Positions 1-315 of a DNA stretch of 11,233 bases are shown one piece after another; position 1 is the first letter of the stretch, and each line of letters starts with the position of its first letter. Location: the IMG/VR virus record IMGVR_UViG_2657245015_000004. One strand, 5' to 3'. The DNA comes from a virus (lineage: Duplodnaviria; Heunggongvirae; Uroviricota; Caudoviricetes). Below the pieces are notes generated by a model. The model had not been told where the DNA came from. It made no database searches and saw only the letters and a list, made by a program, of their open reading frames with translations. A program made the position numbers and the translations under genes.

Positions 1-177
1 AGAGGGCGTAATACCCTGGCGCTCTCGCCTGAGCTGGCGTACCCAGCTCTCAAGCGTGGTTGAACCGACATTCATCGCTTCACTGGCCTGTCGATATGAG
101 TAGCCCTTATCAACAATCAGCTGTGCACATTCCAGCCTGAACTCAGGGGTGAAGGTTCGTTTGGTTTTCTTGTTCAT
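1..177 (-). CDS. IS3-family transposase OrfA, N-terminal 59 codons (3' end outside window)
   Basis: ATG at 177-175 (minus strand). Translation [59 protein letters not shown] closely resembles the helix-turn-helix N-terminus of IS911/IS3-type OrfA as I recall it (e.g. ...FSAEFKRESAQLVVDQ...MTRWVKQLRDERQG). Frame is open to the window edge. Confidence 0.75.
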
Positions 178-249
178 TAAGTCACCTGTTTTGTGTTGTG
201 GTGAGAATATCACCTTTCATCAGGTGGCCAAATTTAGTGTGCCACTACA
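1..249 (-). mobile_element. IS3-family insertion sequence, partial (continues beyond the window start); terminus at about 249 abuts lambda G codon 22
   Basis: Lambda-G homology ends abruptly at 250. On the minus strand the next bases read TGTAGTGGCACAC..., a TG-initiated end typical of IS3-family inverted repeats, followed by an AGGTG ribosome-binding site and an OrfA-like reading frame. Element family inferred from the OrfA translation. Confidence 0.7.
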
Positions 250-315
250 GGCTGACAGTTCAGAAAGCGTGACGGTCACGCCGTTATGTTCAAATGATTC
301 GGTTTTCAGGAACAT
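250..315 (-). pseudogene. G: Tail assembly chaperone G, truncated: first 22 codons only, interrupted by the IS
   Basis: ATG at 315-313, translation [22 protein letters not shown] matches the lambda gpG N-terminus. After codon 22 the frame runs into IS sequence and stops at 222-220. Confidence 0.8.

Follow-up and report, generated by a model that had tools for sequence, protein, structure and literature searches.

The insertion sequence IS911 uses the motif A AAA AAG, and by ISfinder practice isoforms of one IS usually share about 95% identity or more. The DNA analysed here (the window) is an 11,233-base stretch, the reverse complement of the whole draft contig CCBX01000130.1 from assembly GCA_000946315.1. 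At one end of the window, a lambda-like late operon breaks off inside the tail gene G. Our analysis supports the presence of an IS3-family, IS911-like element at this point, which lies after codon 22 of G and in the same orientation as G.

The element was compared with IS911 through the IS911A remnant of E. coli K-12 (insN). The orfA/orfB layout is that of IS911, and OrfA and InsN share 61% identity and have the C-terminal ILKKATALLMSDSLN in common. This stretch spans the A AAA AAG motif in the window-type IS and is conserved in IS911A InsN. The left ends are alike, reading TGAAGTGG...AATTTGGCCACCTGA in IS911A and TGTAGTGG...AATTTGGCCACCTGA in the window-type IS, and the target duplications seen for the latter are 3 bp. 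The nucleotide identity to IS911A is only ~67% over the first ~380 nt, indicating a different element rather than an IS911 isoform. Judged by these features, the window-type IS appears to work like IS911, yet it is a distinct element.

The nearest named relative is ISEc31, represented by PGAP-named copies on E. coli chromosomes and plasmids. The identity is 92–94%, whether the full 1258 bp are compared or the 249-nt end found in the window. With the PGAP-named copies as the reference, this value lies below the ~95% level of isoforms. PGAP labels the window variant 'IS3 family transposase' only, as does PLSDB, and not ISEc31. ISEc31-type copies are likewise inserted in G-T of lambdoid prophages, in the same orientation.

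Anatomy of the element

Window positions 1–249 (minus strand) constitute the left 249 nt of a 1258-bp element of the IS3 family, with nucleotide 1 of the IS at window position 249 and 100% identity to hundreds of IS copies in E. coli. The copy of strain 13E0767 (L001:2992–4249, minus strand) served as the full reference and is identical to the window part at 249 of 249 positions. It is 1258 bp long, starts with TGTAGTGG and ends with CCACTACA, resulting in TG...CA termini. End-to-end comparison within the full copy places the left terminal inverted repeat, TGTAGTGGCACACTAAATTTGGCCAC, at window positions 224–249 (minus strand), with the TG start typical of the IS3 family. The inverted repeats are ~26 bp long and imperfect: 20 of the 26 terminal positions are complementary between the ends, and both the terminal 8 nt and a TTGGCCAC block are conserved between the two ends of the full copy.

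A preliminary description of this DNA had reported a TG-initiated terminal sequence, a ribosome-binding site and an OrfA reading frame leftward from position 249, and we found all three. The orfA frame starts with an ATG at position 177 and runs to the edge of the window (1–177, minus strand). This part comprises the first 59 of 103 codons and encodes the helix-turn-helix (HTH) DNA-binding N-terminus of the transposase. A putative Shine-Dalgarno sequence, AGGTGA, can be read directly 4 nt upstream of the ATG (182–187, minus strand) and would serve its translation. The 59 visible OrfA residues match the Pfam families HTH_Tnp_1 (36.2 bits, cutoff 24.1) and HTH_28 (29.7 bits).

The window itself holds orfA codons 1–59 only, and the frameshift site and OrfAB were tested in the full copy in L001. 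There, orfA occupies nt 73–384 (103 aa) and contains an A AAA AAG heptamer at nt 333, correctly phased. A -1 shift at this motif yields an OrfAB of 392 aa, which PGAP annotates as 'programmed frameshift'. OrfAB matches the NCBIfam model NF033516, 'IS3 family transposase', with 360.6 bits (cutoff 160), and contains rve (DDE; 94.5 bits), HTH_Tnp_1 (57.3 bits) and HTH_21 domains. The NF033516 score, the DDE domain, the frameshift site and the OrfA identity to IS911A InsN bear out the IS911/IS3-type identity that had been proposed from the window alone. The element combines the characteristics of the IS3 family, namely TG...CA repeats, an orfA/orfB -1 frameshift, HTH and DDE domains, a target duplication in the 3–5 bp range (here 3 bp), and a length within ~1.2–1.55 kb (here 1258 bp) with multiple dispersed identical copies. 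Of the 5426 complete E. coli genomes, 2116 carry it, at 4664 places altogether, and it is present in 630 plasmid records in addition.

Positions 1–249 might instead be read as a divergent G/T allele of another lambdoid phage. We found nothing in favour of such an allele and give this reading no weight. The 249 nt recur with 100% identity in IS copies at many unrelated places on chromosomes and plasmids, e.g. next to ybiU, melB and hok, and they encode a transposase HTH domain. In a megablast search they match loci annotated 'IS3 family transposase' at 100% (E = 1e-126), with 939 records at 99% identity or more, and they have no match among the phage records searched. The preliminary description had named two findings that would speak against an IS, a G/T allele at positions 1–249 or an OrfA-like frame devoid of transposase homology. 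The sequence is no G/T allele, and OrfA does have transposase homology.

Left and right junctions of the insertion

Nucleotides 1–9776 of lambda (NC_001416) align with window positions 10024 to 250 on the minus strand at 98.4% identity, in a single BLASTN block. The match opens at the 12-nt cohesive-end sequence GGGCGGCGACCT (10024–10013) and spans nu1, A, W, B, C, D, E, FI, FII, Z, U and V, together with the first 66 nt of G. Both the gene calls and the Pfam domains in the window are consistent with this lambda nu1-to-G gene order. The major tail gene V (331–1071, minus strand) encodes 246 aa with Phage_TTP_12 and Big_2 domains, lies directly upstream of G, and is intact. It shows a late operon that appears lambda-like in other respects.

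On the far side of cos, in positions 10025–11233, the annotation of strain 15A places the small genes ylcI (10224–10418, plus strand) and ybcW (10583–10789, minus strand). The start of ybcV follows from position 11075 and is cut by the contig end. It is expected that this other end of the contig also lies in sequence common to lambdoid prophages. No stx genes are visible within the window.

The left junction is sharp. G starts with an ATG at positions 315–313 on the minus strand, and its codons 1–22 (250–315, minus strand) read as first described. The BLASTN alignment ends exactly at window position 250, corresponding to lambda 9776 and G nt 66, in agreement with the earlier placement of the end of lambda homology. 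Megablast of a 700-nt query breaks at the same junction, with positions 250–700 matching intact V/G loci at up to 100% identity. The model TIGR01674 (phage_lambda_G) matches residues 1–22 only and scores 31.7 bits against a cutoff of 74.45, short of a full-length gpG of ~140 aa. The frame continues into the element for 9 IS-encoded residues (CSGTLNLAT) and then meets TGA TGA, forming a truncated G'-IS fusion ORF of 31 aa (220–315, minus strand). Codon 22 of G, GCC (250–252, minus strand), is the left copy of a 3-bp target-site duplication, as revealed by the right-junction contigs.

The window is an entire draft contig, so its position 1 is an assembly break within a repeat and no biological end. 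It stops at IS nt 249 because short-read assemblers break at multicopy IS elements. The assembly is fragmented and built from short reads, and the junction is 249 nt away from a contig end, which could suggest a chimeric contig end at a repeat, with no IS in G. However, homology breaks exactly at the terminal TG of the IS, and the same junction, with the G'-IS fusion ORF called as a gene, occurs on 8 contigs from at least two public assemblies. Furthermore, we predicted a reciprocal junction with a matching 3-bp duplication, and four assemblies turned out to contain it. An assembly artefact of this kind is extremely improbable.

The exact left junction, searched as a 37-mer, gave 0 matches in genome, viral and metagenome contig collections, which evidently do not hold the relevant draft assemblies. 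An IS at the codon-22 site of G is absent from all 5,426 complete E. coli genomes searched and from every phage record searched. Its absence from the complete E. coli genomes points to a lineage-specific event.

A simple insertion with a 3-bp duplication, typical of the group, predicts the right junction CCACTACA-GCC-CTGCAGCG. When the IS end is joined to what remains of G, taken from strain 15A, a hybrid ORF of 123 aa that begins at a TTG in the IS end is also expected (MTTTALQRIEHL...). Exact-sequence look-up retrieved this protein as WP_044796116.1, present on 4 contigs. All four (L009–L012) read CCACTACA-GCC-CTGCAGCG, with GCC followed by CTGCAG. The predicted right junction, allowing for duplications of 3–5 bp, had 0 matches in metagenome and genome contig collections, again evidently without the relevant draft assemblies.

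In the public record of WP_044796116.1 (L009 1229–1600), the G remainder bears the name 'phage tail assembly chaperone G', with a length of 123 aa. The first four codons, TTG ACC ACT ACA, come from the right end of the IS. This entry is an annotation artefact created by the insertion and does not represent a true variant of G.

Past the right junction, the contigs and the strain 15A prophage show 100% identity for up to 9005 bp. The DNA compared includes the remainder of G, then T, H, M, L, K and I, and ends inside J, most of which it covers. As the right-junction contigs continue through tail genes identical to those of strain 15A, nothing has been deleted. The most extensive view is provided by L009, a 17.4-kb contig of which the first 11.6 kb were examined: it carries IS nt 19–1258 at 100% identity, placing nearly the whole IS and the junction on one contig. 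Past the IS, its gene calls comprise the G remainder, T, H, M, L, K, I, J and lom, and finally the beginning of a tail-fibre gene; the GGGAAAG slippery site is located at the end of the G remainder. Assembly GCA_000939035.1 contains the two junctions together, the left one on L003 and the right one on L012. The other IS end, a target-site duplication and the rest of G and T, which the preliminary description had proposed to seek leftward of the window, are all found in sister assemblies, along with H, M, L, K, I and J. Several of the junction contigs are common to 2–3 samples, which are not individually listed. For the isolate of the window itself, we infer continuity from the sister assemblies that share its left junction.

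It was also considered that, in this particular genome, the IS marks a rearrangement such as an IS-mediated deletion or inversion, and that the rest of G and T does not follow it. The window ends inside the IS, and the contig list for the right-junction protein does not name GCA_000946315.1. In addition, in a scaffold of the same assembly, L004 (CCBX01000785.1, 1908 bp), IS nt 591 is linked through NN to I/J sequence in inverted orientation. However, L004 is a patchwork of three pieces: a 150-bp end piece, a V'-G'-IS piece that contains window 381–1 and IS nt 1–591, and, after the NN, the inverted I/J. The 150-bp piece, which we take to be prlC (oligopeptidase A), has no match in either the window or L005. 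For the I/J piece, the identity to the I/J of this prophage is only 96.3%, against 100% for everything else, and this piece therefore probably derives from another lambdoid prophage. Moreover, sister assemblies with an identical left junction hold the exact right junction and the duplication. We consider a rearrangement in the window's own genome quite unlikely.

As a leftward extension of the window, L004 was rejected, given its three unrelated pieces, the NN gap and the 96.3% identity of its I/J. It is probably a scaffolding patchwork that bridges IS copies or a second lambdoid prophage. It serves as a warning that rearrangements should not be read from such contigs; likewise, a contig that ends in an IS reflects an assembly break and is no evidence of deletion.

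The prophage before and after insertion

E. coli O111:H21 strain 15A (CP077477) matches window positions 250–11233 at 100.0% in one piece. Its prophage is IS-free at this locus, with G (140 aa) and T intact, and the 700-nt query, with the IS end of 249 nt included, has no further match in the strain 15A chromosome. The strain 15A prophage gives the pre-insertion state.

The capsid gene E (2866–3891, minus strand) contains a second defect. The lambda codon AAA for Lys233 is replaced by a TAA ochre codon at positions 3195–3193, which splits E into calls of 232 aa and 98 aa; among the other residues, 338 of 341 match lambda E. The same stop is found in strain 15A, where PGAP reports an 'internal stop', and in the sister contig L003. 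Since the ochre codon is also present in the IS-free copy, it constitutes a second inactivating lesion, independent of the IS. The prophage was already defective in its major capsid gene before the IS inserted.

We show both junctions, the target duplication, the anatomy of the IS and an IS-free, otherwise identical prophage. It is highly probable that they result from a simple insertion of the 1258-bp IS3-family element between nt 66 and 67 of G, with GCC duplicated, the downstream tail genes kept, and G and G-T lost. We propose that an IS911-like element, closest to ISEc31, transposed into G of a lambda-like prophage and came to lie in the same direction as the late operon. The transposition would have duplicated 3 bp of target (GCC) and left the rest of G and the downstream tail genes in place beyond the element.

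Translation of G would now end after 31 residues, 22 from G and 9 encoded by the IS. The preliminary description had concluded that G and its G-T frameshift product are disrupted. The TGA TGA after these 22 + 9 residues agrees with the disruption, and loss of the products would be its consequence. The gpG-T fusion would be lost as well, as ribosomes must reach GGGAAAG at the 3' end of G in order to slip by -1. Both gpG and gpGT are needed for lambda production (PMC3296357), and they are thought to chaperone the tape-measure protein gpH in tail assembly. With gpG and gpGT lost, tail assembly should fail, and the prophage should build no tails. Together, the insertion in G and the ochre codon in E indicate a decaying, doubly defective prophage.

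As the IS is co-oriented with the late operon, the downstream genes might still be transcribed by read-through. Translation might conceivably restart, either from the TTG inside the IS end or from Met32 of G. There is no Shine-Dalgarno sequence before the TTG of the 123-aa hybrid ORF, so that rescue by reinitiation there seems unlikely.

Other insertions in G-T and prophage decay

The same IS, 100% identical, is inserted in G-T at two other sites. In L001 (strain 13E0767; reverse-complement 4622–5879), it follows G nt 236 and is flanked by a TGA target-site duplication. In L006 (strain 2012EL-2448; reverse-complement 3571–4828), it follows G-T nt 685 with a GAT duplication. The sites in the window, L001 and L006 differ, indicating independent events. 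An ISEc31-type relative is located near the end of T in L007 (reverse-complement 3638–4407). The insertions in L001, L006 and L007 are all in the orientation of the late operon, as found by a search that joined same-strand pieces only.

These cases raise the idea that G-T is a preferred, orientation-biased site for the IS911-like/ISEc31 group, with at least four independent same-orientation insertions within ~840 bp (the window, L001, L006 and L007), and that an N-terminally truncated G may be usable from the TTG. Were the truncated G usable, tail assembly might still take place, or the making of tails might come to depend on the IS. Because same-strand pieces alone were joined, we make no claim of an orientation bias or a hotspot, and we regard the idea as a long shot.

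The ISEc31-type copy in T of L007 (1–2713, NZ_AP022261.1) matches the IS only to nt 770. According to PGAP, this copy has a frameshift and lacks its C-terminus. A few hundred bp further on there is ltrA, which encodes a group II intron reverse transcriptase/maturase. The arrangement suggests mobile elements nested within the tail gene of a prophage.

The simple insertion after codon 22 of G adds a further step to the record of prophage decay driven by IS elements in E. coli and matters mainly for annotation. Its exact site could mark the lineage of the small group of isolates that share it. The decay seen here is an ordinary, already known phenomenon. IS insertions that split prophage genes are well documented in E. 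coli, for example those of IS629 in stx2a phages, and are described as a main driver of phage diversity within a type (PMC4587872). The present case resembles those of IS629 and other IS in lambdoid prophages of O157 and other STEC, in that an IS3-family element splits a prophage ORF in two. It differs from them in the IS and in the target gene, which here belongs to a lambda-type morphogenesis module.
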